Shown here piece by piece: positions 7,111 to 38,886 of a stretch of DNA of 54,232 nucleotides (the stretch's first letter is position 1; the number at the start of each line of letters is the position of its first letter). The DNA comes from an uncultured Spirochaetota bacterium. Lineage in GTDB: Bacteria > Spirochaetota > Spirochaetia > SZUA-6 > Fen-1364. The notes beneath the pieces were generated by a model that did not search any database, was not told the origin of the DNA, and saw nothing but the letters and a program-made list of their open reading frames with translations. Location: contig CAVUXE010000049.1 of assembly GCA_963745235.1 (NCBI GenBank), positions 1 to 54,232 of the forward strand. Reading direction: 5' to 3'. Made by a program: the position numbers and the translations under genes.

Positions 7111-7239
7111 CTGGAACCCCTTCCGCTCATCCCTTCCCTGTAGAGTATATTTCCCTTTGAAGCAATCCTCAACGAGGCGACTGGAGCCTGGGGTTGCGCA
7201 TGAATGAAGAAACATTCAGCGCGTGGTACCATTGCCGGC

Positions 7240-8272
7240 ATGAAAAGAATCGTGCAACTGCTTTTGAAAATTGCCATGCCGCTCCTTGCTACTGTCACTC
7301 TGATTGCACTCGCGGGATGCAAGATGTCTCCCGGACCAGCCACTCTCGCAACCGGATCTACACGGCGGGCTTTTACAATAACGGCAACGGCACTTCAACC
7401 ACAGCCTGCTACTGGACGAATGGAGTCAGAACCGACCTCGGAGGCACCGGGATTTCTACAGCCAATCCCGCACGTTGCGACTTCAATCTTCGCCGCCAAC
7501 GGAAACATCTATGTCGGAGGCTACTACAACAACGGCTCGGGCTACGTGGGCTGCTACTGGCTGATCGACGCGAACGGCGTCACAAAGACGGATCTCCCCG
7601 GGACGGGCGCGAATGTCAACGCCATTTTCGTCTCTGGCGGAACGATCTACATGGCGGGGTACTACAACAACGGCTACAAACGTCGCCTGCTACTGGACCG
7701 CAGTTGGGAACTCCCCGTCAAGCCCGGTAGACTTACCCAGCGCGGGCATCTCGCTTGCCACCTCTGTCTACGTGTATGGCAGTACCATCTATGTCGCTGG
7801 ACAGGATAGCTTCACTACGGCCTGCTACTGGACCATAGCGGGGGCACCGCCACCCAGACGGCCCTGACCAGCTCTGGTGGCTGCTTTGCCAACTCCATCT
7901 TCGTGTCTGGGAGCATCATCTACATCGCTGGGACAAGACACCTCGAACGCCTGCCTCTGGACAATGGCGCTAAGGCGACGCTCCCCAGCACTGGGCGAAT
8001 CGCTAACTCCATCTATGTGTCTGGTGGCACGGTCTATACCGCTGGGCAGGACACCTCCAGTGGGGCTGCCTACTGGGTGGGGAGCACCGAAACTACCTTG
8101 CCCGGCACCAGCGGGATTGCAAACTCCATTTTCGTCTCTGGGGGGTCAATCTACACCGCGGGCTACTACAACAACGGCTCCGGCGAATGTGGCGTGCTAC
8201 TGGACAGGTACGACAAAAACCGATCTTCCCGGATCGGGCGGACAAGCCACCGCGGTGACTTTCCTGCAATAA
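7240..8272 (+). CDS. Lipoprotein with 'IFVSGGTIYxAG...ACYW' repeats (beta-propeller-like); several frameshifts
   Basis: MKRIVQLLLKIAMPLLATVTLIALAGC lipobox. Repeat segments are spread over ORFs 7194, 7204, 7613, 7903 and 7877 in different frames. Confidence 0.7.
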
Positions 8273-8382
8273 AGGGCCTGTTTCGGCGCGTTTTCCCAAC
8301 TGGATAAAAATCGGAACACGCGCTATATTTCTTCCCTAAGACCAGTCAGTGTTGCAAATGTTCGTAACGGGGAGGCCGTAGG

Positions 8383-10291
8383 ATGAGAAGAAGCATAGTA
8401 TCTCTGTTGTTCGTCGCTCCGCTTGTGCTCTTTCTGGCTGCGTGCCCGATGGCGAACATGAGCCACACGTCCCAGCCAGGCGCACCCTCCGCTGGAGGGA
8501 CCCAGGAAGCGACCCCCACCATCCAGACAGACACCTCCCGCAACCAGGGCGTCCTTGTCACGCCAAGCGGCGCAAAGCTTGACATCGCGAGCGTCGCAGA
8601 CGATGGCACAACGGTCAATTGCGTCGCCCCAGTCAGCATCGCGCCGATAAGCGACCCATCGAACGCAAAATCGCTTTCAACCAATTACACTTCTATCATA
8701 GTGGGAACCCGGGGAGACGGAAATCCCGGCGCCTGGGTGTATTCGTCGGGCAAGATTCAGGGGGTCATAGACGAGGACAGCGGACAGCTCACATCGCGGC
8801 TTCCCGACTCACCCGAGCAGAATGGCGCCTTCCGGGGGCAGTTCGGATGGGTCTACTACGTCCAGGGGGTCAGCGCGGACGGCAAGGTTATCGTCGGATA
8901 CGCCCTGAACAAGAAGGGAATCAATTTCGGCACAATCCAGGTAGATCCGGGAACGACAATCGGGGTCTACTGGCGAGTCACCAGGCACCCGGTCAGGCCA
9001 TTCTTCCTGGCCTCCCACGCGCATATCATCGGGACACTGGATCAGTCAAAAATCAATCAGACCAACAAGTGGCTGCGGCACCTGATCAGTGCGATTCTCC
9101 AGCATTCACTGGGACAACTCAATTTGCTCTTGATAAACTATCTCAACTCCTACCTCATCATGGTGGACAAGAACGGGGTCACGTTCGATGCCACGGACAA
9201 CCTGTATCTCGTGACTGGAACGGACCAGAATGACCAACCGGTCAACGGCTTCCATAAGTCAGCAGGGCAACATCACAATAACGGAAACCACCACGAATAC
9301 CGGCCCCACGGTCTACGCCGCCGGCTTCTACCCCAACGGCACTTCAACCACAGCCTGCTACTGGGCGAACGGAACCAGGTTCGACCTCGGAGGCACCGGG
9401 ATTTCTACGGCCAATCCTGCACATGCGACTTCGATCTTCGCCGCCAGCGGAAACATCTATGTCGGAGGCTACTACAACAACGGCACGGGCTACGTGGGCT
9501 GCTACTGGGTGATCGACGCGAGTGGCGTCGCAACAAAAACTGACCTTCCTGGGGCGAACGCGAATGTCAACGCCATTTTCGTTTCGGGCGGAACGGTCTA
9601 CACGGCGGGGTACTACTTCAACGGGACGCAAAACATTGCCTGCTACTGGACCGCCGCGGGGAACCCGGTAAGCTTGCCCAGCGCAGGCATCTCATTTGCC
9701 ACCTCTCTTTACGTGACTGGCAGCACCATCTATGTCGCTGGACAGGATAGCTTCAGTATCGCCTGCTACTGGACCATAGCAGGGACAACGGCCCCCGCCC
9801 AGACGCCCCTGACCGTCACTGGCGCTGGCGCTGCCATTGCCAACTCGATCTCCGGGTCCGGCACTTCCATCTCTATCGCGGGACAGGACACTTCCACCAG
9901 CGGGACCCCTACCGCTGTGTACTGGACAGGCAGCAACCTGGCGGAGATCAGTCTCAACCTGGCTAACGGCTCCGCCAACTCCATCTTCGTCTCGGGCGGG
10001 GCTATCTACATTGCGGGTCAATACAACGACCTCTCCGCGAATCCCGTTGGCTTCTATTGGAGCGGAGCGGAAACGGATCTGACGGGTCCCGGCGGAACGG
10101 CTGCCTCGACCATCTCGGGCGGGATAAATGCCCAGTCAGTCTACGTCTCTGGTACAACGGCCTATGTGGCTGGGTACTACGGTTCCCCGGCCACGGCCAG
10201 CTATTGGACGATAGCAGGGTCAACCATCAGCCAGGCGCTGAATCTCTCCGCCGCGAACAGCGGGCAGGCTGTCGCAATCGTCGTGCAATAG
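8383..10291 (+). CDS. Lipoprotein with an unknown N-terminal domain and C-terminal 'IYVAG...ACYW' propeller-like repeats; frameshift near 9245
   Basis: MRRSIVSLLFVAPLVLFLAAC lipobox and GGAGG RBS. ORF 8383..9543 joins ORF 9230..10291. Confidence 0.75.
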
Positions 10292-10315
10292 AAACGCGCC
10301 TCAGCGAGGAACGGC

Positions 10316-10346
10316 AGGAGGCTTCGCGCAGGGGAAGCCTCCTTTG
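10316..10346. terminator. Hairpin between convergent genes (putative terminator)
   Basis: aggaggcttc-N8-gaagcctcct followed by tt. Confidence 0.55.
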
Positions 10347-10396
10347 CGTTCAAGCCCGCAGGGTGCCCACCCGACCGCTCGAGCTTTCCATCTCGT

Positions 10397-11317
10397 TCAG
10401 CTCTTCAGCGCGACGACGCGGCTGAGCACACCATCGAATCCGGCCTTGTCGATATCCAGAATGAGCTTGACGCCGGTCCCGCGCTGGGTGATGCACGCTC
10501 CGCGCAAGGCGTTCTGTCCGAGCTCCATGCGAAGGCCGGTCTCAACAAGCCTTCCGGCGATCCCGGGATGAATGAGCCACGCAGCGGCAAGCGGATCAGG
10601 GAGCATGGTGACTCGCGCTCCACGCGATTTCTCGATGAACCCGAATACCGTCTGCTGGAGATCCAGGACCAGCTTCCCGGACGCAGACGTGGTCATGCCA
10701 AGCGCCTCCAGCTCAGCTTCCGTGTGCGCGGCTTTCAGCGTCGTGTCCCAGGTCAGAAGAGAGAGAGGTATGCCGGCATCCAGAACGCTCTGAACGGCCT
10801 CGGGGTCCGCGTGGAAGTTGAACTCCGCAAACCGCGTGACATTCCCTGTTTCGATGGCGCCGCCCATTGTCACGATTTCGGAGATCAGTCCTCTCAGCTC
10901 GGGGTAAAGGTTCAGCGCAATGGCGATGTTGGTAAGAGGGCCAAGGGTGAGAAGGGTGAGGCCGGGATTTTCCCTGGCCAGGCGCGCAATCCCTTCCGGC
11001 GCTCTCTCCAGCTGCTCCTTCATGTGAGGTAAGGGCAGCTGCACTCCGCCAAAGCCGTTTTTGCCGTGCACGTCCACCGCGAGGTGGGGCGGCTCCACCA
11101 GGGGCCGCGAAGCGCCGCGGAAAACCGGAATGCCGGTCCGGCCGAGAAAGCTCAGGAGCCGAAGCACGTTGTCGATCACGTTTGCAAGGGGCGCGTTCCC
11201 CGAGACGGTGGTGATGCCAAGGACGGAAACCTCGTCGGGACTGGCAAGAGCCATCATGATTGCAATGGCATCGTCCACACCGCAGTCGGTATCGATCAGG
11301 ACCTTCCTGCTGTTCAT
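10397..11317 (-). CDS. Inosine/uridine-preferring nucleoside hydrolase (Rih family)
   Basis: DTDCGVDD motif, HGKNGFG, LGPLTNIA, GNVTRFAEFNFHADPEA, PDPLA. Confidence 0.93.
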   Translation of the reverse strand: MNSRKVLIDTDCGVDDAIAIMMALASPDEVSVLGITTVSGNAPLANVIDNVLRLLSFLGRTGIPVFRGASRPLVEPPHLAVDVHGKNGFGGVQLPLPHMKEQLERAPEGIARLARENPGLTLLTLGPLTNIAIALNLYPELRGLISEIVTMGGAIETGNVTRFAEFNFHADPEAVQSVLDAGIPLSLLTWDTTLKAAHTEAELEALGMTTSASGKLVLDLQQTVFGFIEKSRGARVTMLPDPLAAAWLIHPGIAGRLVETGLRMELGQNALRGACITQRGTGVKLILDIDKAGFDGVLSRVVALKS

Positions 11318-11336
11318 GGCGGGAGTGTAGCGCCTC

Positions 11337-11365
11337 TTGACGACCGCCGCAATATCCGCTATTAT
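11337..11365 (+). promoter_or_regulatory. Sigma70-type promoter of hgcC-like/arsM
   Basis: TTGACG (11337-42), 17-bp spacer, TATTAT (11360-65). Confidence 0.7.
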
Positions 11366-11378
11366 TGCATTATCGGAT

Positions 11379-11398
11379 TTTTCAGAATATTCTGAAAA
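11379..11398. promoter_or_regulatory. Perfect 20-bp palindrome, candidate repressor operator
   Basis: TTTTCAGAAT|ATTCTGAAAA lies between the -10 box and the start codon. Confidence 0.65.
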
Positions 11399-11408
11399 GG
11401 ATACATGA

Positions 11409-11657
11409 ATGGCAAAGACAGCGAAAAGCGACGGCTGCTGCTCCGTGGAGGCCGTGGTGACCGTGGATTCCCGCGGTCAGATCGTCCTGCCCAAGGAGCT
11501 TCGCTCCGCGGCCGGAATCAGGGCCGGGGACAAGCTTGCGGTTGTGATCATGCAGAGCGGGGGAAGGGTATGCTGCCTCTCGCTCATGAAAGTCGAGCAG
11601 CTTGCGGGCACGGTCAGGGACATCCTGGGTCCCGTTGCGCGCGAGCTTGCCGGGTAG
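11409..11657 (+). CDS. hgcC: AbrB/MazE/SpoVT-fold protein with two Cys-Cys pairs; HgcAB-associated HgcC-like
   Basis: GCCSVEAVVTVDSRGQIVLPKELR...IRAGDKLAVV...VCCLSLMK; located next to arsM and hgcA. Confidence 0.75.
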   Translation: MAKTAKSDGCCSVEAVVTVDSRGQIVLPKELRSAAGIRAGDKLAVVIMQSGGRVCCLSLMKVEQLAGTVRDILGPVARELAG

Positions 11658-11679
11658 AAAAAGGAAGGGGGGTATCTTT

Positions 11680-12504
11680 ATGGCAACAGACATGAGGGCG
11701 GAGGTCCGTCGGCACTACGCGAAGGCGGCCACGCAGACGGGAGAGAGGGTGGGCCCCTGCTGCGGGACAGACTGCTGCGGCGGCGGCAAGGCCAAAGCCC
11801 AGAGCGAGCGCGTGGGATACGACGGCAGCCAGCTCGCCTCCATTCCCGTCGAGGCGGACCTGGGCCTGGGATGCGGCAACCCCACGGCGCTGGGAGAGCT
11901 TCGCGCGGGTGAAACCGTGGTGGACCTCGGGTCGGGAGGCGGGATCGACTGCTTTCTTGCGGCACGGAAGGTGGGTCCCGACGGCAAAGTGATCGGGGTG
12001 GACATGACTCCGGAAATGCTGGACAGGGCGCGGGCAGCGGCACGCTCGGGAGGTTACGGAAACGTCGAGTTCCGGCTCGGGGAGATAGAAAGCCTGCCCG
12101 TTGCGGATGCGAGCGCTGACGTGGTCATCTCCAACTGCGTGATCAACCTGTCCACGGAAAAAGCGCGCGTGTTTCGGGAGGCGAACCGGATCCTGAAGCC
12201 GGGCGGCCGCGCCGTGATCTCCGACATCATGTTGCTGGAGAAGCTCCCGGAAAGGCTGATGTCCAACGCGGCGCTTTTCGCGGGATGCGTGTCAGGGGCC
12301 ATCCTCAGGGATGAGTATCTCTCCCTGATGAGGGAAGCCGGATTCACGGACGTAAGGGTGGAACGGCAGAAGGAAAGCTCCGAAATGTTCGGTCCCGAGG
12401 ATGAAGCCGGGCTGATGGCGCAGGCACCTGACCTTTCCCGGGAAGAGCTTTCCATGCTGGGAAAGACCATCGTGAGCGTTCAGCTCACCGCTCGAAAGAA
12501 GTAG
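11680..12504 (+). CDS. arsM: Arsenite S-adenosylmethionine methyltransferase
   Basis: N-terminal [29 protein letters not shown] and GCVSGA (the conserved Cys set). ATG at 11680 after a purine-rich RBS. Confidence 0.93.
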
Positions 12505-12507
12505 GAC

Positions 12508-13560
12508 CTACAGCCTGCCGCCGTGGCTCAGCTTTGAAAGCACGGCGGCAGCCGTCGTCAGCACTCCGGCCCCAACGAAAACCGGAATGGCCGTGCGGAT
12601 TTCCCGGCGCACGCCGGAGCGGCTCGTGAACGTGGTGGCTCCCGTGAAAGAAAGGGCCAGGAAACCGGCGGCAGCGGGGAAGAAAGCCCAGCAGGTCACG
12701 AGCAGAAACGGGTCCATTCCCTCAGCCAGCCCGGCGATGTGCAGGAGCACCGCATTTATAATTGCCCCAAGCAGCCATCCCTTCGCAGTGAAGGCCTGAA
12801 ACGGAACGTAGGGGAGAAGGAGAGGCGTGAGGACGGAGCCTGCAAGCACGGCGCCGAGCCCCAGGGCGAACAACGGCCACACGCCGGCCCATGCCTTTTG
12901 CAGCACCACGCCTCCCGGAGTCAGCCCTGCGTAGAGGATGGCCACGAAGGCAAAAACGAAGAAGAGCTTGAGTGACTTCCCCAGCTCCATTGGAACGAGG
13001 ACAAGCCTGTCCCGGAGGCTGAACTCCACCCTGCGCATTTCCGGGGAGGCCTCCCCGGAAGCCAGGTAAGAAGGCAGGTCCCTCGAGCGCGCAGGGCCGA
13101 ACCTGACGCGAAACCCGGTCTGCTTCTGCACCAGGTGCGCCTTGACCCCCGGTGCGCTGAGCTGCGGGAGGGTCAGCTCGCGGTGCCGCACCACTTCCGC
13201 CAGCCGAACTTTGCCAACCCTCGTGACAAGCTCCTCCGTACCGAAGGCCCCTTCAGCGGCGGCACACCACACATTGATGCCCTTGGTCTCAACAACGAGG
13301 ACCCAGAGGTCAATCCCCGCCAGGTCCTTTCTCAAGATGTCAAAAGTGAGCTTGTAGCTCGCCGTCACGACCACGGGAGAATCAGGGCCCGGGCGTCCCA
13401 GGGCGTAGAGCCCGGGGGCGACGCTGTAGCGCATGCGGGACCTGCCCAGCCTGCACAGAACAGCTCCGCGGCGGTCCTCCCATGTCCACAGCGAGTGGAT
13501 GCGGGTAAAGCCCGGCGGCTCTCGGATGGCGGAGCCCGGGCCGCGGCCTTCCGCCGTCAT
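12508..13560 (-). CDS. hgcA: HgcA-like corrinoid membrane protein (mercury-methylation family) with variant cap helix
   Basis: C-terminal 350 aa of ORF 12508..14544: YSVAPGLYALG, PVVVTASYKLTFD, ETKGINVWCAAAEGAFGTEEL, LPQLSAPGV, then several TM helices and FTGATTFTSRSGVRRE. The ATG at 13560 overlaps the MFS stop (ATGA). Confidence 0.85.
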   Translation of the reverse strand: MTAEGRGPGSAIREPPGFTRIHSLWTWEDRRGAVLCRLGRSRMRYSVAPGLYALGRPGPDSPVVVTASYKLTFDILRKDLAGIDLWVLVVETKGINVWCAAAEGAFGTEELVTRVGKVRLAEVVRHRELTLPQLSAPGVKAHLVQKQTGFRVRFGPARSRDLPSYLASGEASPEMRRVEFSLRDRLVLVPMELGKSLKLFFVFAFVAILYAGLTPGGVVLQKAWAGVWPLFALGLGAVLAGSVLTPLLLPYVPFQAFTAKGWLLGAIINAVLLHIAGLAEGMDPFLLVTCWAFFPAAAGFLALSFTGATTFTSRSGVRREIRTAIPVFVGAGVLTTAAAVLSKLSHGGRL

Positions 13561-14831
13561 CCCGCGGGCACCGCTTCCCGGGCCTTCCGCGTGTATCGTC
13601 GCAGCCCAAGAAGCGCGGCAAATGAGGCCGCGGAGGCGAACAGCAGGCCCGCGCTCAGCAGGAAAAGCGCCCGGAACCCGGCGGCACGGATGATGTATCC
13701 GCCCCCGAGGGCGGAGGCGGCAAGACCCAGGGTGCTGGCCATGTTCGCAGCCCCGGACATGAGCGCGCGGTACCTGGTTGCGACAATGTCCAGGATGAAC
13801 ACCTGCATTGCGGCCTCGTTCATGGAATTGGCCGCGGTCATTCCCGCCCAGCCGATCGCAGCCGGCGGCCAGCTCATCACGAGGGCCAGGGGAAGCACGG
13901 CTATCCCCATGGCCAGAAGCCCTGCCAGAGACGTGCGGCCCGTCCCCCACCTGCGCGCAACGATGGGCATGAGGGGCGTGAAGACGATGGAGGCGATTGC
14001 AGAGATGCTTACCAGGACGCCTATCGAAGGCGTGGGGAGGCGCAATGCGGTATCCAGGTAGACGTTGAAGAACGTCAGGACGCCGCCGTAGCCGTATTCC
14101 CGCAGAAATCGAACCACGATGATCACGGCGATGAGCGCCATGGGCACGCGGGAGGCCGCGCGAACATCCTCCTTCGGCATTCCTTTGCCCGTCTCCCGGA
14201 AGAACCCGAGCAGGACCAGGCCAGGGGCCAGGATGACCACGGCCGCCCAGAGAGAGAACCCGTACGGCAGCGAGGAGGAAATGCTCGATCGGGCAATAGC
14301 TCCGAACAGGTTCGGGAGAAGACCGCCGCACAGGCTGCCCAGGAACGTGGTCAGGGAGATCACCGTCCCGTTGAAAGCGAACGCATACGTGCTTGCTCCC
14401 GGCTCGACGGCGCCCATGAGCGCGGGATTTGAGTTGACGATGAAAAGCGCGCCCCCGAGAGCGCTGATGACCCGCGAGGCAACGAGGGCAGCAAGGCGCA
14501 GCGAGGGAGCAAGGATGAACGACGCGGCGGGAGCAACTGCCCATCCGACAAGGGCCAGGACGCCGCCCAGGATCATGGCGCGCCTGCTCCCCGTGATCAT
14601 CCCGAGGGCGCCCGCGGGAATGCTGAACGCCGTCACAAGGAGATAGAAGAGGAAGTTGAGATTTCCGATTACCTCGGTCCCATATCCGAGGCGGAGCAGG
14701 AAAAGGTTCGTCAGAAGGTAGGTGATGCCCCAGTACGTGAATCCAAGAAGCCCCGCGGTGATGAAAAGAAGGTAGGCGTTGCGGTCAAACCCGCCAACCG
14801 CTTGCAACCAGCTCGTGTGGTCCCGTGACAA
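13557..14831 (-). CDS. MFS transporter
   Basis: About 12 hydrophobic helices in ORF 13557..14900, with MFS-like GALGMITGSRR and ARRWG loops. The start is uncertain; TTG 14831 follows GAGGGG. Confidence 0.85.
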   Translation of the reverse strand: MSRDHTSWLQAVGGFDRNAYLLFITAGLLGFTYWGITYLLTNLFLLRLGYGTEVIGNLNFLFYLLVTAFSIPAGALGMITGSRRAMILGGVLALVGWAVAPAASFILAPSLRLAALVASRVISALGGALFIVNSNPALMGAVEPGASTYAFAFNGTVISLTTFLGSLCGGLLPNLFGAIARSSISSSLPYGFSLWAAVVILAPGLVLLGFFRETGKGMPKEDVRAASRVPMALIAVIIVVRFLREYGYGGVLTFFNVYLDTALRLPTPSIGVLVSISAIASIVFTPLMPIVARRWGTGRTSLAGLLAMGIAVLPLALVMSWPPAAIGWAGMTAANSMNEAAMQVFILDIVATRYRALMSGAANMASTLGLAASALGGGYIIRAAGFRALFLLSAGLLFASAASFAALLGLRRYTRKAREAVPAG

Positions 14832-14944
14832 CCCCTCGACCTCTGGGATGATTATCCCGAGCCGCCGGCGGGAAGTCAACACCGACGAACCTGTCAACAT
14901 CGACGACCCTTGACTTTCCTGGAATTCATGGCTCCTTTGAGGGC

Positions 14945-15901
14945 ATGAAGCATCGTGACCCCGTGATTTTCATCTCCGAACCGTTGAGCGACGAGCAACG
15001 CGCGGAGTTGCTCCGCGCCGCCCCCAGCGCGCGGATCGTGGACCAGGCCGCCCTGGCCACGGACGCTTCGCTTGCGGAGCGCATCGACGTTTGCTATTCC
15101 GCCCTGCCAGCCGGCCTGTGGGGGAAAGCGAAAGGCCTTTCGTGGCTGCAGGTGAAGTGGGCGGGGGTTGACACGCTCCTGGCGCTCCCCCAGGTCGTGG
15201 CGCATCGTGCCACGATTACCAACGTGCATATCCACGGAAACGCGGTGTGCGAGCACCTGTGGGGCATGACCCTCATGTTGACCAGGAACCTCAAGCGCGC
15301 CGTCATCCGCCAGGAGGAGGGGCGGTGGGACGAGAGCCTGAAGGACGGCCTCGCGACGCTTTCGGGAAGGACACTGTGCATCGTGGGGCTGGGAGCCATT
15401 GGCGCAAGCTGCGCCGCTGTCGGCAGGGCGCTTGGAATGCGCGTTGTGGGAATCCGGCGTCACGCGGCTGCCAGCCCCGCGGCGGACAAGGTTGTCGGCC
15501 CCGAGCGGCGGCTTGAGGTCTTTGCGGAATCCAGGGTCATCATGGTCCTCCTTCCCGATACCGGGGATACTCGCGCTTTCATCGGCCAGGAGGAGCTTTC
15601 CGCCATGCGAGGGGCATTCCTCCTCAACGGCGGACGTGGACGCAGCATTGATACGGCTGCCCTTGTGGATGCCCTTCGCGCGGGAAACGTCCGCGGCGCC
15701 GGGCTGGACGTGACAGATCCCGAGCCCCTTCCGCCGGGACATCCCTTGTGGGCGATGCCGAACGTCGTTATCACTCCGCACTATGCCGGCAATCACCCTG
15801 GGTATGACGGGGAGGCTTTCAGCGTGTTCGTCGACAACCTGGCCCGTTGGGTGCGGGGAAAACCTCTTCGAAACGTCGTTGAGCGGGACGCCGGCTATTG
15901 A
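14945..15901 (+). CDS. D-2-hydroxyacid dehydrogenase (NAD(P)-dependent)
   Basis: GLGAIG, NGGRG, LDVTDPEPLP, ITPHYAG. Confidence 0.92.
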   Translation: MKHRDPVIFISEPLSDEQRAELLRAAPSARIVDQAALATDASLAERIDVCYSALPAGLWGKAKGLSWLQVKWAGVDTLLALPQVVAHRATITNVHIHGNAVCEHLWGMTLMLTRNLKRAVIRQEEGRWDESLKDGLATLSGRTLCIVGLGAIGASCAAVGRALGMRVVGIRRHAAASPAADKVVGPERRLEVFAESRVIMVLLPDTGDTRAFIGQEELSAMRGAFLLNGGRGRSIDTAALVDALRAGNVRGAGLDVTDPEPLPPGHPLWAMPNVVITPHYAGNHPGYDGEAFSVFVDNLARWVRGKPLRNVVERDAGY

Positions 15902-16713
15902 TGGACGCGCCCCCGACCGCCGAGAAGCCGCGTCTTCTCATAGGCACCAGCGGGTATTCCTACGAGGACTGGGTTGGCCCTGTGTATCCCCCTGGCTCCC
16001 GCAAGGAGGACTTTCTTTCCCTGTACTCACAGGAGTTCCCCGTGGTGGAGCTGAACTTTTCCTACTACGCGCAGCCCGTCCCCCGGACTCTTGAGAGGAT
16101 GCTCAGCGTGACTCCCCCGGCGTTTCTTTTCGCTTTGAAGGCGCACAGGAGCATGACGCACGACATCGGCCCGGATTGGGAAAAAGACATCGGCGTGTTC
16201 CGCTCCGGCCTCACACCGCTCGTGGAAGCTGGCCGGCTTGCCGCGGTGCTCCTGCAGTTTCCTTACAGCTTCGGGTACACCACGGAATCCCGCGAACGCC
16301 TTGCAACCCTCTGCGACCGGCTGGAAGGCCTCCCGCTTGCGGTGGAGTTTCGCAAAAGCGACTGGCTCCGACCCCAGGTCTTCGAGGGCCTGCGCGAGCG
16401 AAGGGCCGCCGTAGTGAGCGTGGACGAGCCCGACCTCCCCCGGCTCTTGCGGCCAATTTCGGATGTCACCTCGGACCTTGCATACGTGCGGTTCCATGGG
16501 AGGAACAAGGAAAAGTGGTGGACCGGGGACAACGCCTCCCGCTACGATTATCTCTATGACGCGGCGGAGCTGGAGGGATGGGTGGAAAGAGTGCGGACAA
16601 TCCTTTCCCGGGTCCACGTCATGCTGATCTTCTTCAATAATCACTGGCGCGGGAACGCCGCACAGAACGCGCGCATGTTCAGGGAAATCCTTCGCCAGAG
16701 GGAACTCTTTTGA
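15901..16713 (+). CDS. DUF72 family protein
   Basis: IGTSGYSYEDW, VELNFSYY, LLQFP, YVRFHGRN, YDYLY, FFNNH. Confidence 0.92.
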   Translation: MDAPPTAEKPRLLIGTSGYSYEDWVGPVYPPGSRKEDFLSLYSQEFPVVELNFSYYAQPVPRTLERMLSVTPPAFLFALKAHRSMTHDIGPDWEKDIGVFRSGLTPLVEAGRLAAVLLQFPYSFGYTTESRERLATLCDRLEGLPLAVEFRKSDWLRPQVFEGLRERRAAVVSVDEPDLPRLLRPISDVTSDLAYVRFHGRNKEKWWTGDNASRYDYLYDAAELEGWVERVRTILSRVHVMLIFFNNHWRGNAAQNARMFREILRQRELF

Positions 16714-16714
16714 C

Positions 16715-17284
16715 TCACGCGAACCACTTGCTCACAAGGCGCGGTGGCTCGAACCCCCCAATACGCCGCATTGCCTCTGCGGGGTCGGGGACGAGGGCCA
16801 GGACGCTTGCCATTTCCGGCTTTGCAAACTTCTCACGGTAGAACTTCTCGAAGACTGCGGCCAGGGGGTCGAAGAATCCCAGCGTGTTGACCAGCACGAG
16901 GGGCCGAACCAGGATCCCGAACTGGAGCTGCGTGATCAGCTCGGAGAGCTCCTCCAGCGTTCCGAATCCGCCCGGAAGGGCCACGAAAGCCTCCGAGGTC
17001 CCCATCATCATGGCCTTGCGCTCCCGCATGTCCGCGGTGATCGTGAGCTCGTCACACTTCTCATAGGCCACGGCTTTGCGGTGCATGAAGTCGGGAATGA
17101 TACCGATGACCCGCCCGCCGTTGCCGTGAACGGCCCTGGCCACGGCCCCCATCATCCCCACCTTGCCGCCGCCGTACACCAGGGTGTGTCCCTCCATGCC
17201 GATCAACGCGCCCATCTCCGTGGCCGCGGCGAAGTAAGCGGGATCCACGGCATCACTCGAGGAACAGAATACACAGATCTTCAC
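16715..17284 (-). CDS. LOG family nucleotide phosphoribohydrolase (TIGR00730-like)
   Basis: ICVFCSSS, LVYGGG, MRERK, PGGFGTLEE. Confidence 0.92.
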   Translation of the reverse strand: MKICVFCSSSDAVDPAYFAAATEMGALIGMEGHTLVYGGGKVGMMGAVARAVHGNGGRVIGIIPDFMHRKAVAYEKCDELTITADMRERKAMMMGTSEAFVALPGGFGTLEELSELITQLQFGILVRPLVLVNTLGFFDPLAAVFEKFYREKFAKPEMASVLALVPDPAEAMRRIGGFEPPRLVSKWFA

Positions 17285-17389
17285 CCCTGCCCTCCGTCCG
17301 CCAATGTACGATGGTACCGTCAGGCATGGCAAGACGGCAGGTCCCCCCGGGAAAAATGTCCCCTGCCCCCCTTGACGTCCTGGCCATCT

Positions 17390-17428
17390 TACGTATATCT
17401 ATCCAGTCACGATGAATAAATATTCCAC
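17390..17428. promoter_or_regulatory. Tandem ARG-box-like operator overlapping the argR start codon
   Basis: TACGTATATCTATCCAGT-cac-GATGAATAAATATTCCAC: two 18-mers with a 3-bp spacer resembling WNTGAATWWWWATTCANW. TTGACG at 17372. Confidence 0.55.
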
Positions 17429-17921
17429 GGGGGCCCGCCGCCGGGGAACAAAGACGGAACGGCTTTCCGCCATCAGACGGATCATTGCCCGCGGCGTTGT
17501 GGACAGCCAGGAGACCCTCATATCTCTGCTGCGGAGGGAGGGATTCGCGGCCACGCAGGCCACCCTCTCGCGGGACTTGAAGCGCCTTGGCATTGGCAAA
17601 GCCCCCCGGCCTGACGGGGGCTACACGTACGTCCTGGCCTCCGAGGAGCCCGTGCCCGCCACGGACCAGATATTCATCCAGGACTTCAGAAGGGGATTCC
17701 TGTCCCTGGAGTTTTCCGGGCCGCTGGGGTTGATCCGCACGCTTCCCGGCCATGCAAACAGCGTCGCCGCGGCGCTTGACCACTTGCGCGTTTCGCACGT
17801 CCTCGGCACGATCGCGGGAGACGACACGATCCTGCTCGTTCCTCGCAATGGCGTGTCGCCGTCGCGTCTTGTGAAGGCCATGAAAGCCCGGATCCCGGGC
17901 TTCAAGGAGGGGACAGAATGA
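17412..17921 (+). CDS. argR: Arginine repressor
   Basis: ATQATLSRDL, RTLPGHA, GTIAGDDT. Confidence 0.95.
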   Translation: MNKYSTGARRRGTKTERLSAIRRIIARGVVDSQETLISLLRREGFAATQATLSRDLKRLGIGKAPRPDGGYTYVLASEEPVPATDQIFIQDFRRGFLSLEFSGPLGLIRTLPGHANSVAAALDHLRVSHVLGTIAGDDTILLVPRNGVSPSRLVKAMKARIPGFKEGTE

Positions 17922-18968: not shown

Positions 18969-19751
18969 GTGAAGACGGGACTTGTCCTGGTGAAGATCGG
19001 CGGGAAAGCGGCCGAGAACGCGGCCGCCCTGGCCTGCCTGGCTGACGAGATGCTGTTCCTCTCGAAGGGCTACCGGTTCCTCCTTGTCCACGGGGGCGGC
19101 GCGGAAGTGACGGCTCTGTCCCGGAAACTGGGAATAGAACCTGTCTTTGCGAACGGGCTCCGCCAGACAACGGCCTCGGAGATGGACGTCGTTGACATGG
19201 TGCTCGCCGGCAAGGTCAACAAGCAGCTCGTTCGCCTGCTTCGCGCGCGGGGGCTAGACGCTGTCGGCCTGAGCGGCGCTGACGGCGCCATCCTCACGGG
19301 CAAGTCCGCGGGGATACTGCCGGACGGCTCCCAGTCCCGCACGGGAGACGTGGATGAGGCGGACGGGAAGCTCCTGACCCTCCTTCTCGACAACAGCTTC
19401 CTGCCAGTGATCTCCTCTCCCGCCATGGACGGTACAGGTCTCGCGCTGAATCTCAACGCGGACACCGCTGCATTCGCAATCGCGGTCCGCCTCTCCTGCT
19501 CCGCGCTGGTTTTTCTCTCCGATATCCCCGGCATCCTCGCGGACGGCGGCGTCATCCGCGAGCTTTCCGCGGCGCAGGCGGGGACACTCACCGCCACTGG
19601 CGTGATAACCGGCGGCATGGTCCCGAAGGTTTCTGCATCCCTGGACGCGCTGGATCGGGGCGTGCAGACCGTCATCATAGGTCAGTACGAGGAGGCAGGC
19701 TCTCTGGCGCAGCTCCTCGAAGGCAGAAAAGGAACCAGGATATGGAAATGA
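18969..19751 (+). CDS. argB: Acetylglutamate kinase
   Basis: VKIGG, VHGGG, NLNADTAA, TGGMVPK. Confidence 0.95.
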   Translation: MKTGLVLVKIGGKAAENAAALACLADEMLFLSKGYRFLLVHGGGAEVTALSRKLGIEPVFANGLRQTTASEMDVVDMVLAGKVNKQLVRLLRARGLDAVGLSGADGAILTGKSAGILPDGSQSRTGDVDEADGKLLTLLLDNSFLPVISSPAMDGTGLALNLNADTAAFAIAVRLSCSALVFLSDIPGILADGGVIRELSAAQAGTLTATGVITGGMVPKVSASLDALDRGVQTVIIGQYEEAGSLAQLLEGRKGTRIWK

Positions 19752-20941
19752 AAACCAAAGACCCCGCTGTCGCGACGAACCTTCCCTTCCCGCGTCAGTA
19801 CGGCACGGAGCTGCTTGTCATCGCGAGGGGCAAAGGCGTCTGGCTCCAGGACATCGCGGGCAAGAAGTACCTGGATTTTGCCGGCGGCATCGCCGTGAAC
19901 GCCCTGGGATACGGCCGGGCTGACCTGGCCCGCACCGCCGCTGACCAGATGCGCAAGCTCAGCCACATCTCCAACCTTTTCACCACGGAGCCCGCGCTGG
20001 CCCTTGCGCGGCTCATGCTGGCAAAGGGTCCGTACAAGTTCGCCTCCGTTTTCTTCGGCAACAGCGGCACCGAGGCAAACGAGGCCGCCCTGAAGTACGC
20101 GCGGCTGTACGCGCTTCGCACAAGGGGAACCGGCCATGAGAAGCTCCTGTGCTTCGAGAATGCGTTTCCACGGGAGGACCCTGGGCGCGCTTTCCTGCAC
20201 GCCCAGCGCAAAGTACCAGGAGCCCTACCAGCCCCTCCTGCCGGATGTCGTCGTGGCGCCGTACAACGATGTCGCGGCGCTGCAGAACGCGCTGGATGAC
20301 CGCGTTGCAGGGGTGATTGTCGAAGTGGTCCAGGGAGAGGGCGGGCTGGGAACCATGACCCCGGAGTTCGCCCAGGCGCTGAACGAGGCCTGCCGGAAAA
20401 CCGGGGCCATCCTGATCGCGGACGAGGTGCAGACAGGCATGGCCCGCACGGGCACTTTCTACGGCTCAGAAGGCGTCGGGCTGGAGCCGGACATCATCAC
20501 CCTGGCCAAGCCGCTGGCCGGCGGGCTTCCCCTTTCCGCGGTGCTGATCCCGGAGAAGGTCAACAATCTCATCCACCTGGGCGACCACGGGACCACGTTC
20601 GGCGGCGGGCCGGTGACAACCGCCGTGGCGGCACGCGTGTGGAAAGTGATCTCGCAGCCTGGGTTCGCGGAGCGCGTTCGCTCGCGCGGCGAGTTCCTGC
20701 GGAAGCAGCTGGAAGCTCTGAAGGACCGCAAGGCAAGCGTCGGAGCGCTGTTCGGCCGCGGCCTCCTGCAGGGATTCGAGTACAAGGGCGGGAGGTGAAG
20801 GACCTGCTTGCACGCCTGCAGGCCGCGGGCTCCTGGCGCTTCGGTCCGGGACCAACGTGGTCCGCCTGGCCCCGCCTCTCGTCATCAGCGAAGCGGAAAT
20901 CAACGAACGGCATCGACATCATAGAGGAGGCACTGGAATGA
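19742..20941 (+). CDS. argD: Acetylornithine aminotransferase (several apparent frameshifts)
   Basis: [50 protein letters not shown] and VRLAPPL, distributed over several frames. Confidence 0.9.
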
Positions 20942-22184
20942 GCGAAGGAAACGGCATTCGATCCGGCATCGTCAAGAAGAACGTGAAGAAGATCGTCCTG
21001 GCGTACTCGGGCGGGCTGGACACCTCCATCATCATCCCCTGGCTCAAGGAGAACTACCCGGGGGCGGAGGTGGTGGCGGTCTGCACGGACGTCGGGCAGA
21101 ACGAGGACCTCACGGGCCTGGAGGCAAAGGCCAAGGCCTCCGGCGCCTCGAAGCTGTACCTCCTGGACCTGCGCGAGGAGTTCGCCCGGGACTACCTCTT
21201 CCCGATGCTGCGCTCAGGGGCCATCTACGAGGGCAAGTACCTCCTGGGCACCTCCATCGCCCGGCCGCTGCAGGCCAAGGCGCAGGTGGAGGTTGCGCTC
21301 AAGGAAGGCGCGGATGCGGTGGCGCACGGCTGCACCGGCAAGGGCAACGACCAGGTGCGGTTCGAGCTGGCCTACAAGGCGCTGGCGCCGCAGCTCGCCG
21401 TCATCGCCCCCTGGCGGCTGTGGAACATCCGCTCCCGCGAGGAGGCCATCGACTACGCGAAGAGCCCACGGCATCGACCTGGGCAACATCTCCAAGAAGA
21501 ACATCTACTCGCGGGACATGAACGCCTGGCACATGAGCCACGAGGGCGGAGACCTGGAGGACCCGTGGAACAGGCCGCAGGAGCCGCTGTTCCAGCTCAC
21601 CAAGTCCCTGAAGGACGCCCCGGACCGGGAGACCGAGGTCACCATCGACTTCGAGAAGGGGATTCCCGGTCGCGGTGGACGGGAAGAAGCTGCGCCCGTT
21701 CGAGATCCTCACCACGCTGAACGCGCTGGGCGCGGAGAACGGCATCGGCCGGACGGACGCGGTGGAGAACCGCCGGGTGGGCATGAAGAGCCGCGGCGTC
21801 TACGAGACCCCGGGAGGCACGATCCTCTACACCGCGCTTCGCGAGCTGGAGATGCTCACGCTGGACACGGACTGCCTGCACTTCAAGCAGAACGTCGCCC
21901 AGACCTACGCCGACCTCGTCTACGGCGGCAAGTGGTTCACGCCGCTGCGGGAGTCCCTGGAAGCCTTCATGGAGAAGGTTTCCGAGTACACGACCGGGAC
22001 GGTGCGGCTGGTCCTGTACAAGGGGAACATCGTCATCGCCGGGCGGAAGTCGCCCTACTCGCTGTACCTGAAGGACCTCGCTTCGTTCGGCGCCTCCAGC
22101 TACGACCACGCGGATGCCACGGGCTTCATCAACCTGTACGGGCTTCCGGCGATGGTCGCCTCGCTGGTGCACGGAAAGAAATAG
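20938..22184 (+). CDS. argG: Argininosuccinate synthase (two apparent frameshifts)
   Basis: [47 protein letters not shown]. Confidence 0.93.
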
Positions 22185-33498: not shown

Positions 33499-34406
33499 GC
33501 AGCAGCGCCGCACCCGTAGACGAACGAACGCAGAGGAGCGCCTCGCTCCGTTTCCGAGCCGTGCGCGTGCTGGCCGGGCGACGCCTGATGGAGCATCTTC
33601 TCGCACCCGCAACGTGGGTGCTCGCCGCCTTTGGGCTCGTTCTCGCATTCCTGATTGTGCAAGGATTCGTGAGGTCGGTTGACTCCAGCGGTTTCGATTT
33701 TTCGCTCCACCCGCTCTACGAGATAATCTACGGCATCATTGGCAGCGCCTTCGGCGTCACCTACGTTCGGCAGCTCTTTGGCGACGGCCCTTTCGCTTTT
33801 GCATGTTTGGTAGCCTTTGCGCCAGTTCTTCTGTACTACTGCCTCACCTCGATTCAGCGCTTCGGGCACGAGAGACGCTCCGGCGTGGTGGACCTCGTCG
33901 CGGCCGGGCCGGCCGATGTCCCCGCCTATCTTTTCTCATTCGGGGCCGCAGACACTGTTGCCGTCGCCGCCCACCTGGCCCTGACGGGACTTTTTCTCGC
34001 AGTCAGCGGGATTGTGTGGAATCTCGCGGTCGGGTTGACGCTCGTGGCCTACCTGCTTGGGCTTCTGTTCTTCGCGGCATCTCTCCTGGGGCTTGCGCTC
34101 CTCCTCGTTTCACTTCTTCGCCAACCAGCCTCCGCAGTTGCGCTGTTTCTGGTGGTTGCCGCGGCCCTTGCTTCCGCAGAAGTCGTCTCGTTCGCCATGG
34201 TTGGTGGAGGGCCGGGCAGCGGGGCTGTTGTCGCGTCATGGGTGCTGCGCTGGCTGTCTCCCTTCTATTATCTCGATGTGGCGCGAATGGCTGCCCGGTC
34301 CAGACAGACTCCGCAGTTCTTCTCTGCTTTGCTTGGGCAGGCGGTTCTCTGCGCAGCTTTCCTTACCGGCGCCTATGTGACGGCCAGATCACGGGGGACC
34401 CAGTGA
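33495..34406 (+). CDS. ABC-2 type permease
   Basis: About 6 TM helices, ERRSGVVDL loop, WLSPFYY. ATGA overlap with the ATPase. Confidence 0.75.
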   Translation: MSSSAAPVDERTQRSASLRFRAVRVLAGRRLMEHLLAPATWVLAAFGLVLAFLIVQGFVRSVDSSGFDFSLHPLYEIIYGIIGSAFGVTYVRQLFGDGPFAFACLVAFAPVLLYYCLTSIQRFGHERRSGVVDLVAAGPADVPAYLFSFGAADTVAVAAHLALTGLFLAVSGIVWNLAVGLTLVAYLLGLLFFAASLLGLALLLVSLLRQPASAVALFLVVAAALASAEVVSFAMVGGGPGSGAVVASWVLRWLSPFYYLDVARMAARSRQTPQFFSALLGQAVLCAAFLTGAYVTARSRGTQ

Positions 34407-35782
34407 GCTCGAGGGTGGCCGTGGTGCTCCTTGCGAGCGTGCTCTTGCTTGCGCCCGGCAGAGCCGCAACGGGCCTTTGGCCCGATGTTCCCCAAAAGCA
34501 GGAGCAGGTCGTGTATTCAGTCCTCACCTATGACGGAGCGGCCCTTCAATCGACATTTGCGACCGAGCACTCGGACACGATCTACCTTCTGGCAGGAGTC
34601 GACAGCTTTGTCTCGGTCTGGAAGACGTTCGTTTACTATTGGCCTCTAGCCAGAGAATGGAAGACCGACAGCGACACGCTGAATGAGCAGTTGACGGGAT
34701 CTCTCGTCATCTCGGGAGGACAGCATCGGGTCCTCCTCCCCGTCGATTACACCTATCGAAGCACGACCAGCCCTTACGGGATCTCCTGGGAGAGCCACAC
34801 GGATGAGCAAGCGCGTCAGGAAGCTTCCGAGTATCAAAGCGCGTCGGATGCCCTTGCGCGGGCAACAATCGCATATACGAACACGGAGAATCGATTGAAT
34901 GCCGAGCGCGGACGACTGATCGACGTCATCCGCTCACTCGTCCGGGCGGGCAAGACTGCGGAGGCGCAGCGTGTGGTCACGCAGTACAACTCCCTGGTCG
35001 AGCCTGTTGCGCCTGCACCGCTTGGATACGAAGTCCGCCCCCTCCAGAAGGCGTTCGACGTGAACCTGCCGCCGGGAACCTATTCCATGCGCCTCGGGGA
35101 CCGGTCCGGAGGGACGCTGGAAGGATCAGAAAAGCGGCTTGTGGTCTTTTCTCCACCGAGCGCCGGCGTTACAGGCTACGACATCATCCCCGGCGACCGT
35201 TGGACTCGTCCTCAGGAGTCCAGTAGTGTCGTGGATGCCCTTTACGTGAGTGGCACGTCCGACCTTTACCTGCGCCCTTTTGAGGAGACCGAGCTCAATG
35301 ACCTGGATTACAGCAGGATGGTCGATAATCAGTCACTTGGAAGCCCGCGGCTCTTTCGCTGGGTGCGGACCCGACAGATCCAGAGCTCTGTCCTGCACGT
35401 GCGCTCGGAAGGAGCGGGTTCACACTCAGCGGAAGCTCCGAGCACGGTTCTCGAACAACCCTACTTTGTTCATCAAGTACCGGGCTCGAGCCTGGGGTAC
35501 CAAATCGTTCCCTTCGATCAAAACCAGCCGGATCAGCAGGGCCATGATCCGAGCCTGGTGGCGTTTCACCTCCCAAGCGGGTCCGGACACTTGCGTTTCT
35601 ACCTCAGTCGGCCCGACGGGACGCCCTACCCCGGGAGCGAGCGTGAAGTCCGCGTGTTGAGACAGGACCGTCATGGAAACGGCCTCTTTCTCCTTGCTCT
35701 GGTTCCGCTTCTCGGGCTCGGCCTGCCTCTTGTGCGGCGCCTCAAGAGCGGAAAGACGGAGCGCGGAGGGCGCTGCGGCTGA
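34403..35782 (+). CDS. Hypothetical exported protein with a C-terminal TM anchor
   Basis: GTG start overlapping the upstream stop, signal peptide, soluble body with a helical stretch, and a GLFLLALVPLLGLGLPLVRR tail. Confidence 0.7.
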   Translation: MSSRVAVVLLASVLLLAPGRAATGLWPDVPQKQEQVVYSVLTYDGAALQSTFATEHSDTIYLLAGVDSFVSVWKTFVYYWPLAREWKTDSDTLNEQLTGSLVISGGQHRVLLPVDYTYRSTTSPYGISWESHTDEQARQEASEYQSASDALARATIAYTNTENRLNAERGRLIDVIRSLVRAGKTAEAQRVVTQYNSLVEPVAPAPLGYEVRPLQKAFDVNLPPGTYSMRLGDRSGGTLEGSEKRLVVFSPPSAGVTGYDIIPGDRWTRPQESSSVVDALYVSGTSDLYLRPFEETELNDLDYSRMVDNQSLGSPRLFRWVRTRQIQSSVLHVRSEGAGSHSAEAPSTVLEQPYFVHQVPGSSLGYQIVPFDQNQPDQQGHDPSLVAFHLPSGSGHLRFYLSRPDGTPYPGSEREVRVLRQDRHGNGLFLLALVPLLGLGLPLVRRLKSGKTERGGRCG

Positions 35783-36096
35783 GCGTGGCACTCCTCAGTG
35801 TTTTCCCTCACGACACGCCATGCCTCGGAGATGTTGCTCGGTGCCTCCGCGAGAGACAACACGCATAGAAATTTGGTTGCGGCGCATCGCTTCGAATCTG
35901 GTCGGCACCTTTCCCGGACTCGGCAGAAAATTCCGCAGTCTGCGTGCGTCCCCCAAGAGACCGGGCGGACTCTCGGCGTGCGGTAGTGCGGTAAGGGCCG
36001 GTTTGACTTGACGAGAGGCGTGAGTTAGCCTACCGGGTGCCGTCACGGCTCGACATGGAATGCTGGATGGTTCGGGCGCGAAATGAGAACGAGATA

Positions 36097-37188
36097 ATGG
36101 AAGCGAAACCTGAAAAAATTCTGTGGATCTCGCTCCTGATCGCTATTCCAGTTGCGGTCTTCGGCGCGGCCGTGACCCTCTTGAATCTGCTTCACACTCC
36201 CTATGCCGTGTGGCTGCAGGTGGAAGCACCTCCCTACGCGGTCGTCGGGGGCACTCTCGACATCGGGATAACGCTCGGACAAGTGCCCGAGCCGTCCTTT
36301 CTCGTCGTGGACCTCTACCAGTTTGAAAAAGACCACAGGGCGATCAGCGACCACCCTTCTCTGAGCCGGTCTCTCTCTGTACACAACGGCGTCAACTATT
36401 CGCTCCGGATGGAAGTCAAGGAAGTGGAGAAGCTGGCCTTCCTTCAGCTGGTCATCTACCTGTCGCCGACGGGGGATTGGCGGACCAGGACCCACGCGGC
36501 CCGCTCTCAGGTCATCCCGGTCAAGATTCAGGCGGACCAGGCAGGCGGTCCTGCCATGAGGAGAATCCGTGCGTTCATCATCAGCAGGTCGCGGAGTCGC
36601 GATATCCCTTTCCAGCCGGGCGGGAGTCTGGCCAAACGCGCGTCCGTTTACCCGACGGCCGCGTTCCGGATATTCCTGATAGGCTTGCTCGTCGTGGGAT
36701 GCCTGGTTTGCCTGATCCGCTCGACCCGTTTGCGCCTCCTCGCAAACCACCGCGCGACCCGCAAAGAGCTTTTTTGGCGAGGCGCCCCGATCCTGCTCTT
36801 CCTGGCATTTCTCTGGGAGATCTTGCGCCTGGAGGAGCGGGTCTCCGAGTGGGGCAGAAGAGTCGTCTCAGGCCTGGACCTCTATTATTCCCGCCAGTCG
36901 TATCAGAAGGCCGCCCTCGCCCTTCTCGCGGCCGCATTTGCCGTTTTACTCGTTATTTCCTTCAGGGCGGTCTCGCGGAACCGGGCCCGCCTCTATCCTG
37001 TGCTCGCGGGAATCGCACTGGCTGGCTACACAAGCGTGTCGCTCGCCGCAGCGCTTTCCTTCCACTCCATTGACTTGCTCGAGCTGACTTCGGTGGCCGG
37101 GGCTTCCGTGGTTGACCTGGCCAAGGCGGCCTGCGCCGCGGCGTTCCTGATCATGGTCCTCGTCGCCCCCCGGCCAAGCGAGAGATAG
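36097..37188 (+). CDS. Hypothetical membrane protein
   Basis: N-terminal TM, a soluble domain and several C-terminal TM helices. Start uncertain. Confidence 0.6.
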   Translation: MEAKPEKILWISLLIAIPVAVFGAAVTLLNLLHTPYAVWLQVEAPPYAVVGGTLDIGITLGQVPEPSFLVVDLYQFEKDHRAISDHPSLSRSLSVHNGVNYSLRMEVKEVEKLAFLQLVIYLSPTGDWRTRTHAARSQVIPVKIQADQAGGPAMRRIRAFIISRSRSRDIPFQPGGSLAKRASVYPTAAFRIFLIGLLVVGCLVCLIRSTRLRLLANHRATRKELFWRGAPILLFLAFLWEILRLEERVSEWGRRVVSGLDLYYSRQSYQKAALALLAAAFAVLLVISFRAVSRNRARLYPVLAGIALAGYTSVSLAAALSFHSIDLLELTSVAGASVVDLAKAACAAAFLIMVLVAPRPSER

Positions 37189-37241
37189 GCTCGCTCAAGA
37201 ATTGCTGGTTGTCTGGCGCGGCCGCACAATCTCCATCCGTC

Positions 37242-37844: not shown

Positions 37845-38265
37845 ATGCCCCCCTTGGCCTTTGATTGCTCTCCAAATAGACAGCCGAGACGATGGTAATA
37901 TAATCAATGCCCGTCGACAAGAATGCAGCTGACATGGGACTGACACCGCTCAAGTGGCTGGTGCCAGATCACCAAAGGATGGCAACCGGTGCAAAAATGT
38001 TCAGCAGGGGTTACAATTGAGCCGAGTGAGCGTCGGGCATCTGCGGGTACTTTGCTGAAATTGACCGCAAAGCACCGCGCTGCCGTAGGATTGCAAAGAA
38101 TAATTACCTCGAGGCCGCCAAGGACAAGCTGGCCGAGCGATACATACCGCGAGAACTCCGTCGTCGTTGGTGATGCAACGCTCGGTTTCTGGCGGAGGGC
38201 CTGCACCTGAACGCGGTCATGTTTCTGTCTTTGAGCGACAGGGTCGCCGAAAGGAGAACGTCAAG

Positions 38266-38877: not shown

Positions 38878-38886
38878 GTCAAAGCT

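Follow-up and report, generated by a model that had tools for sequence, protein, structure and literature searches.

HgcA of the mercury-methylating pair HgcAB (NF040863; Pseudodesulfovibrio mercurii ND132; computed model 9a0b) combines a B12-binding Rossmann domain with five membrane helices. According to PMC11588087, HgcB reduces the cobalt, S-adenosylmethionine (SAM) methylates the cobalt, and the methyl group is passed to mercury. The same source describes HgcA expressed without HgcB as insoluble and free of cobalamin, and a lone HgcA therefore probably needs a partner. Mercury methylation is not considered to be detoxification, and why microbes carry hgcAB is described as an open question (PMC7305189). 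Here, we report on an hgcA-like gene, termed hgcA*, in the 54,232-nt contig CAVUXE010000049.1 (assembly GCA_963745235.1) of an uncultured Spirochaetota bacterium (SZUA-6; Fen-1364) from soil or peat. The whole 54,232-nt stretch is called the window, and the genome that it belongs to G000. hgcA* (12508..13560, minus strand) encodes a full-length HgcA-family corrinoid membrane protein of 350 residues with the same two-part architecture. It differs from HgcA of HgcAB in that its clade has no adjacent hgcB, that Gly96/Lys97 and Ala153 are changed, that a second, canonical hgcAB co-occurs, and that in relatives the motif is eroded or the whole gene lost. We conclude that hgcA* represents a real and apparently undescribed clade of HgcA paralogues, not a new metalloid-methylation system.

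Three other groups of described proteins are close enough to be compared. The fused HgcAB-like proteins (NF043039; Pyrococcus furiosus type) are HgcA relatives that also have variant cap helices, and mercury methylation is presented as not demonstrated for them in PMC4646819 and PMC10087281. In contrast to these, hgcA* scores 192 bits on their profile (cut-off 285), has no fused ferredoxin or Fe-S motif, and nests inside true HgcA. The marine hgcA-like sequences of Podar et al. (2015, PMC4646819) share cap-helix substitutions, a membrane domain and the absence of a downstream hgcB with hgcA*. They are a few unbinned open-ocean contigs, whereas the hgcA* clade is genome-resolved and syntenic and shares its cell with a canonical pair; this contrast is drawn from the published description. 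The large subunit AcsC/CdhE from CFeSP, the corrinoid iron-sulfur protein (PF03599; 2ycl, 2h9a), has the B12-binding fold in common with hgcA* (root-mean-square deviation 1.3 A over 126 columns), and also a Ser at the position of Ala153. Unlike hgcA*, it has neither a membrane domain nor the cap-helix Cys. hgcA* reaches only 73 bits on NF003195 (cut-off 306), with a match confined to residues 46-168, and does not have the N-terminal Fe-S and middle domains of the full-length subunit.

An altered cap helix in a full-length HgcA-family protein

hgcA* passed the whole-protein HgcA profile test (385 bits on NF040863, cut-off 275). Five hydrophobic segments in the C-terminal domain correspond to five predicted membrane helices, located at residues 182-346 in a predicted structure with a mean predicted local distance difference test score (pLDDT) of 86.7. 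The best Foldseek match of this structure was the computed HgcAB model (9a0b_A, E 3e-19, 41% identity), with CFeSP next.

The cap helix reads NVWCAAAEG, versus canonical NVWCAAGKG or N(V/I)WCA(A/G)GK, and fails the high-stringency motif N(V/I)WC(A/S)(A/G/S)GK given in PMC10087281. In ND132 numbering, the substitutions in hgcA* are Gly96>Ala, Lys97>Glu, Ala153>Ser and Arg250>Gln, the last at a position that is Arg in 96% of canonical rows. The cap-helix cysteine is retained (Cys99 of hgcA*, equivalent to Cys93 of ND132), as are Asn90, the Val, and Trp92. Eight of ten modelled B12 contacts, as well as the Cys, are the same as in ND132 (contacts from PMC7305189, Suppl. Table 3, located by eye with the ND132 row as guide). 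Lys97 and Ala153 are both listed there as B12 contacts of the ND132 model.

For the clade as a whole, we compared an alignment of 73 rows, including database homologues of which some are copies of the same genomes, with 93 canonical rows. Lys97 was present in none of the 73 clade rows, but in 91 of the 93 canonical ones. Ala153 was replaced by Ser in 67 rows and Trp92 was changed in 24, while Cys93 was kept in 62, all 11 losses being to Ser. Tyr69, Leu71, Gly104, Pro132, Gly155 and Pro156 were fixed at 100%, Val97 and Asp74 were at 99%, and Asn90, Trp92, Gly96 and Lys97 were drifting. The natural cap-helix variants included AAGAG, AAAEG, ACGVETG and SAAASG. In the window's subclade, Trp was kept in 25 of 25 rows and Cys in 24. 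All 57 aligned members of the clade matched NF040863 at E<=1e-20.

Surveys that count by profile alone can therefore register this peat or soil genus twice. Motif filters, in turn, discard the clade unseen, and surveys are reported to discard motif variants of HgcA (PMC10087281). A near-identical partial copy of the hgcA* protein is row M4000 of the HgcA alignment of Cooper 2020 and is absent from the paired HgcAB alignment of that work. In the literature covered, which mostly leaves aside subscription journals and gene tables of preprints, we found no account of a conserved hgcB-less HgcA paralogue beside a canonical pair.

Two hgcA sites in one genus

The preliminary description of this locus, made from the window sequence alone, had placed the stop codons of hgcA* and the convergent arsM gene so close together that no hgcB could fit between them. 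This is correct: the stops are separated by 3 bp (12505-12507). Its further observation that no 2x[4Fe-4S] ferredoxin is encoded in the window also holds, since CxxCxxCxxxC is absent from all six frames. It had considered a split hgcA/hgcB methylator, an idea that holds in a modified form. On contig C97, G000 has an hgcB (CMECGAC motif, 111 bits on NF040864, cut-off 99) that hgcA* may share; however, this hgcB adjoins an hgcA of its own, a canonical copy (NVWCAAGKG) that lies before it and is 47% identical to hgcA*; a convergent arsC-like gene follows.

Across 21 genomes of the genus, two sites are conserved. Site 1 consists of marR-hgcA-hgcB, mostly followed by arsC (G000 is without the marR). 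Site 2 adjoins the arg operon, LOG, DUF72 and 2-hydroxyacid dehydrogenase genes. It carries hgcA* in 17 of the 21 genomes, and hgcB is found alongside in none of these 17. In the remaining four (G005, G017, G018 and G019), hgcA* is gone from the assembled site. One of the 17 copies is frameshifted, as are neighbouring genes there (G008), and another is split across two contigs (G001). In the sister-genus genomes G023 and G024, site 2 holds canonical hgcA together with hgcB, and in G022, also of a sister genus, a near-canonical hgcA truncated by the contig end.

The absence of hgcB is a property of the clade. An hgcB-type motif was found downstream of hgcA in 95 of 97 judgeable loci outside the clade versus none of 12 inside, although these 12 overlap with the genus genomes and are not independent of them. 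A metagenome scan added at least four further clade loci, each with less than 400 bp downstream. All titled records of the clade are Spirochaetia or Spirochaetota metagenome-assembled genomes. Throughout the family, hgcB matches number one per canonical hgcA, a broken remnant in G023 aside. An hgcB is present elsewhere in the genome in 14 of the 17 hgcA* carriers; the three carriers without it have a completeness of 70-89%, and in G004, one of the three, a contig end cuts site 1 immediately behind marR.

The preliminary description had held that its interpretation would be refuted by a normal hgcB elsewhere together with an HgcA nested among ordinary methylators. This is largely the case, with the protein nesting among hgcB-linked HgcA, and yet the gene remains odd on grounds that the window sequence alone could not show.

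Some details of the canonical loci may be noted. In G000, the canonical hgcAB (C97:18414-19730; L001:8415-9731) directly follows eda. A marR gene whose product has a Cys-Cys pair lies upstream in 16 of 18 other canonical loci fetched, and no marR match was found elsewhere in G000; a MarR-type regulator of hgcAB conserved across the genus is a lead offered by this synteny. A response-regulator neighbour of the canonical locus had no match in five genomes, in a search run without a positive control. G023 has a broken 3' fragment of hgcA and a frameshifted hgcB near a transposase-like gene (G023:C3 ~34000-38900; L051), the hgcA piece being closest to the intact copy of G023 itself. The canonical hgcA of G016 contains an in-frame TAG (L063), and two canonical-type hgcAB are present in G005 (L069) as well as in G011.

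Phylogeny and history

The HgcA tree comprised 52 rows and was rooted at its midpoint. The partial G001, the frameshifted G008 and the stop-bearing canonical G016 sequences were excluded, and a subset of the other canonical copies was used. The hgcA* sequences formed a single clade (100/99) inside the HgcA of the sister genera (100/99), far from the genus's own canonical copies (100/100). A tree joining hgcA* with these canonical copies was rejected by the approximately unbiased (AU) test (p-AU 1.2e-7). Therefore, hgcA* did not arise by duplication within the genus.

The simplest history would be that site 2 is ancestral, that site 1 was acquired on the stem of the genus, and that hgcB was then lost from site 2. 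hgcA* would thus be the ancestral hgcA of the family, still at its old chromosomal site, and the gain of a second, distantly related marR-hgcA-hgcB-arsC locus would have been followed by loss of hgcB at the old one. Changes would then have been fixed around the B12 site, with loss of Lys97 in all members, Ala153>Ser, and subsequently Gly96>Ala in the window's subclade.

Further degenerate hgcA lineages in other spirochaete families were considered on account of 20 weak HgcA-like matches. None of these proved to be a further case: they comprised fused HgcAB-like proteins, a single canonical gene with a frameshift, and members of an HgcA group that is distant and carries GK-type motifs. The distant group (L275-L282, from other spirochaete families) mostly reads NVWCSSGKG and scores 145-185 bits on NF040863, below the cut-off; in several members hgcB comes next and an arsR-like gene after it, and profile cut-offs would miss the group. 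Fused HgcAB-like genes (L283-L293) are common in related spirochaete families, several of them behind or fused to a SAM methyltransferase.

Purifying selection on hgcA*

The ratio of nonsynonymous to synonymous substitution rates (dN/dS) was 0.144 (0.126-0.165) for hgcA* and 0.107 (0.093-0.123) for canonical hgcA in the 11 genomes that carry the two copies. Four housekeeping neighbours, each assessed in 9-10 genomes, gave 0.086-0.118. For hgcA*, a dN/dS of 1 was rejected by a margin of 610 log units. The core of the B12 domain was, in the window's subclade, as constrained in hgcA* (0.066) as in canonical HgcA of the same five genomes (0.071). The reading frame is open in 16 of the 17 carriers, which match at 45-77% identity without an internal stop, and among the strain differences listed, six of the seven that lie within the gene were synonymous. 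Because of the intact frames, the constraint and the four deletions, hgcA* is neither a pseudogene nor indispensable. It is under purifying selection, which is uneven across the clade.

Pairing with HgcB and rival explanations

In a complex model of hgcA* with the HgcB of G000, the interface score ipSAE was 0.67, compared with 0.00 for the best of three controls. The runs agreed in at least 89% of contacts, and the pLDDT of the partner was at least 74. Solved complexes attained the mark that this pair reached in 116 of 157 cases, and mismatched pairs in 2 of 215. In the window's subclade, the modelled interface (133-142, 176-180, 249-257 and 303-321) is mostly preserved; in the Cys-less subclade it has eroded.

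We infer that hgcA* is probably expressed and, in the window's subclade, would be a still-working membrane corrinoid protein. It would bind a cobamide through Cys99 and pair in trans with the single HgcB of the cell, which would reduce the cobalt before SAM methylates it, as in HgcAB. hgcA* would then be an alternative HgcA subunit, unlike the canonical one in activity, in substrate or in preferred cobamide. To this reading, in which a second corrinoid subunit of altered chemistry makes use in trans of the only HgcB, we assign a probability of about 0.5. A bolder version is only tentative, with odds that appear clearly short of even: hgcA* may have been freed from mercury-type chemistry, be strongly selected in the window's subclade, and serve as a swappable subunit on the shared HgcB that acts on the family's native substrate or else on some new acceptor. 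If so, a comparison of the two subunits of one cell would tell apart the residues that serve the native function and those that serve mercury methylation.

Several observations weigh against a shared-HgcB subunit with altered chemistry. Lys97>Glu on its own occurs in hgcB-linked HgcA (67 rows of the Cooper 2020 paired alignment; five loci here), so that the altered chemistry suggested by the motif is open to doubt. Gly96>Ala and Arg250>Gln change two modelled HgcB-contact positions that are conserved in canonical HgcA. Close cousins of true partners also pass the complex test (10 of 12 colicin pairs), and the model therefore shows likeness, not binding; with the computed HgcAB model 9a0b in the PDB, its score may reflect family likeness alone. 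Outside the window's subclade, there are subclades without Trp92 (24 of 73 rows) or Cys93 (11 of 73). The B12-domain dN/dS of two eroded subclades was 0.338 and 0.180, against 0.094 and 0.055 for canonical HgcA (the 0.055 coming from a partly different genome set), in estimates that, like those for the window's subclade, are based on three to six sequences, carry no intervals and involve far diverged synonymous sites. All four deletions of hgcA* fall on the eroded-subclade side of the species tree. Because of these losses, the B12-domain dN/dS of 0.18-0.34 and the placement of the deletions, the clade taken together is not constrained to HgcA chemistry. Lastly, the HgcA tree was rooted at the midpoint only, for which reason the order of events given above stays conditional.

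The same erosion could mean that hgcA* is no longer a methyltransferase working with HgcB, and that it has become a membrane-anchored binder of cobamides (for storage, sensing or trafficking) or a weak decoy that tempers canonical HgcAB. Pocket and fold residues are indeed fixed while the cap-helix positions drift, Cys is lost only to Ser, the Ser at the Ala153 position is the CFeSP state, and Cys-less lineages keep open frames, a dN/dS of ~0.19 and the promoter-like site. We nevertheless regard a non-catalytic role as doubtful, given that Trp and Cys are kept in the window's subclade at canonical-level constraint, and that the genes beside hgcA* include no conserved alternative partner. Slow decay of a redundant remnant, in which weak constraint merely avoids a misfolded membrane protein and no role is selected, would account for the clean deletions in 4 of 21 genomes, the stepwise loss of the motif, the raised dN/dS and long branches of two subclades, and perhaps the frameshift in G008, which its neighbouring genes share. 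It seems unlikely in the face of the stop-free frames in 16 of 17 carriers, the dN/dS far below 1 (and equal to that of canonical HgcA in the window's subclade), and the predominance of synonymous strain differences. That hgcA* might instead be an ordinary second mercury methylase, using HgcB in trans and differing by neutral motif changes, fits with its NF040863 match, the retained Asn90, Trp92 and Cys93, the Lys97>Glu precedent and the passing complex model. This is quite improbable, as Lys97 is never regained in 73 rows, the high-stringency motif is failed, and the combination of Gly96>Ala with Lys97>Glu occurs in no row of the Cooper 2020 paired HgcAB alignment.

An HgcB-independent corrinoid methyltransferase with a major facilitator superfamily (MFS) exporter, acting together with ArsM on arsenic or another metalloid, had been put forward in the preliminary description as one explanation of the four-gene arrangement hgcC-arsM/hgcA*-MFS. 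The arrangement is kept in five genomes of the best-conserved subclade, and hgcAB is reported to lie often near ars genes and to be arsenic-responsive in ND132 (10.1101/2022.10.17.512643; PMC7438021). The synteny did not extend further: hgcC-arsM is present at 5 of 17 hgcA* loci, absent from the other 12, and stands alone in four genomes; in one of the five adjacent cases (G015) its arsM is frameshifted. Of the 17 loci, 8 have the MFS gene, which in the sister-genus genome G023 stands ahead of an ordinary canonical hgcAB and gave no match to ars transporters in NCBIfam. No arsM was detected at E<=1e-50 in 6 of the 17 carriers, whose genomes are incomplete, and the two units lie on opposite strands behind separate promoter-like sites. 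A joint metalloid system is thus very unlikely. The suspicion that hgcB had been dropped by a misjoin at about 12505, or that the two hgcA copies stem from different organisms, could draw on the 86% completeness and 5.9% contamination of G000 and on the apparent frameshifts of argD and argG in the window. We consider such an artefact of assembly or binning practically negligible, since contigs from three of four public runs, belonging to three studies, bridge 12505 with no indel, the same convergent arrangement is found in four other genomes, and both loci co-occur with their conserved neighbours in 14 genomes.

Canonical HgcAB and a selected hgcB-less HgcA in one lineage amount to a natural allelic series of cap-helix variants with an in-cell control. 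hgcA* could thereby help to show what the HgcA family does besides mercury methylation.

Neighbouring genes and promoters

The gene upstream of hgcA* (13557..14831, minus strand) encodes an MFS_1 transporter (PF07690). Its stop codon overlaps the ATG of hgcA* (ATGA), an overlap that the preliminary description had read as translational coupling. The protein has a single cysteine, and NCBIfam, Pfam and Atlas gave generic MFS_1 matches only. Among 151 genomes of the class, close relatives were found in only one other genus. A 758-codon frame that runs from hgcA* back over the MFS gene is shorter in most relatives and is regarded as a shadow frame.

A sigma70-type promoter-like site (TTGACT-17-GATAAT; 14851..14879, minus strand) lies before MFS-hgcA*, as judged by consensus match and conservation. 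Such a site is found ahead of the operon at 13 of the 16 hgcA* loci considered and at 3 of 3 sister loci, a cross-genome count made without a shuffle control. Where the MFS gene is missing, the site directly precedes the hgcA* start codon. At the loci of this kind (L039-L047, L050), the start codon of hgcA or hgcA* is 6-7 bases past the -10 element, a spacing that suggests a leaderless mRNA.

On the plus strand, hgcC (11409..11657; 107 bits on NF040962, cut-off 70) codes for a regulator of the AbrB type that contains two Cys-Cys pairs, and arsM (11680..12504), the second gene of the unit, for an arsenite methyltransferase (328 bits on NF008823, cut-off 263). The regulator belongs to the HgcC/PrlF-like family described beside hgcAB (NF040962; PMC10349881), and ars genes adjoin an hgcA-type gene here as in the reported ars-hgcAB neighbourhoods (PMC7438021). 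In contrast to these known cases, the HgcC found here heads hgcC-arsM and faces hgcA* from downstream and on the opposite strand. hgcC exceeded the cut-off in 9 of the 25 family genomes and was directly followed by arsM in all nine, with hgcA* beside the unit in only five. Because of this, we regard hgcC-arsM as an arsenic unit of its own; the best explanation is an independent arsenic-methylation unit that would later have been placed downstream of hgcA* in one subclade. HgcC (window 11337-11657; L072-L080) resembles an arsenite-responsive AbrB-type regulator of arsM more than an hgcAB accessory protein. In three other hgcA* carriers, the arsM is a different one and belongs to an arsR-arsM-acr3-type unit.

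A promoter-like site (TTGACG-17-TATTAT; 11337..11365, plus strand) was identified before hgcC-arsM by consensus match and alignment of nine hgcC loci. Just past its -10 element is a candidate HgcC operator (11372..11398, no strand assigned), a repeated ATCNGA-N4-TCNGA box that contains a perfect 20-bp palindrome at 11379-11398. A similar box was aligned at the nine hgcC loci and is likely an autoregulatory operator to which HgcC would bind. Terminator-like sites in 11200-15100 were not in excess of chance (5 vs 3.9), with none between the convergent stops, and arsM transcription may for this reason affect hgcA* in the five adjacent genomes. An Rfam scan of 10000-17500 gave no riboswitch or other family at the gathering score.

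Outside these loci, a second ArsM-like methyltransferase is encoded in G000 (C9:142004-142507; 40% identical over 168 residues). In the window, argD and argG (19742-22184) and a repeat-rich lipoprotein gene (7194-8307) were called in pieces, which probably reflects assembly indels; argD is whole in relatives.

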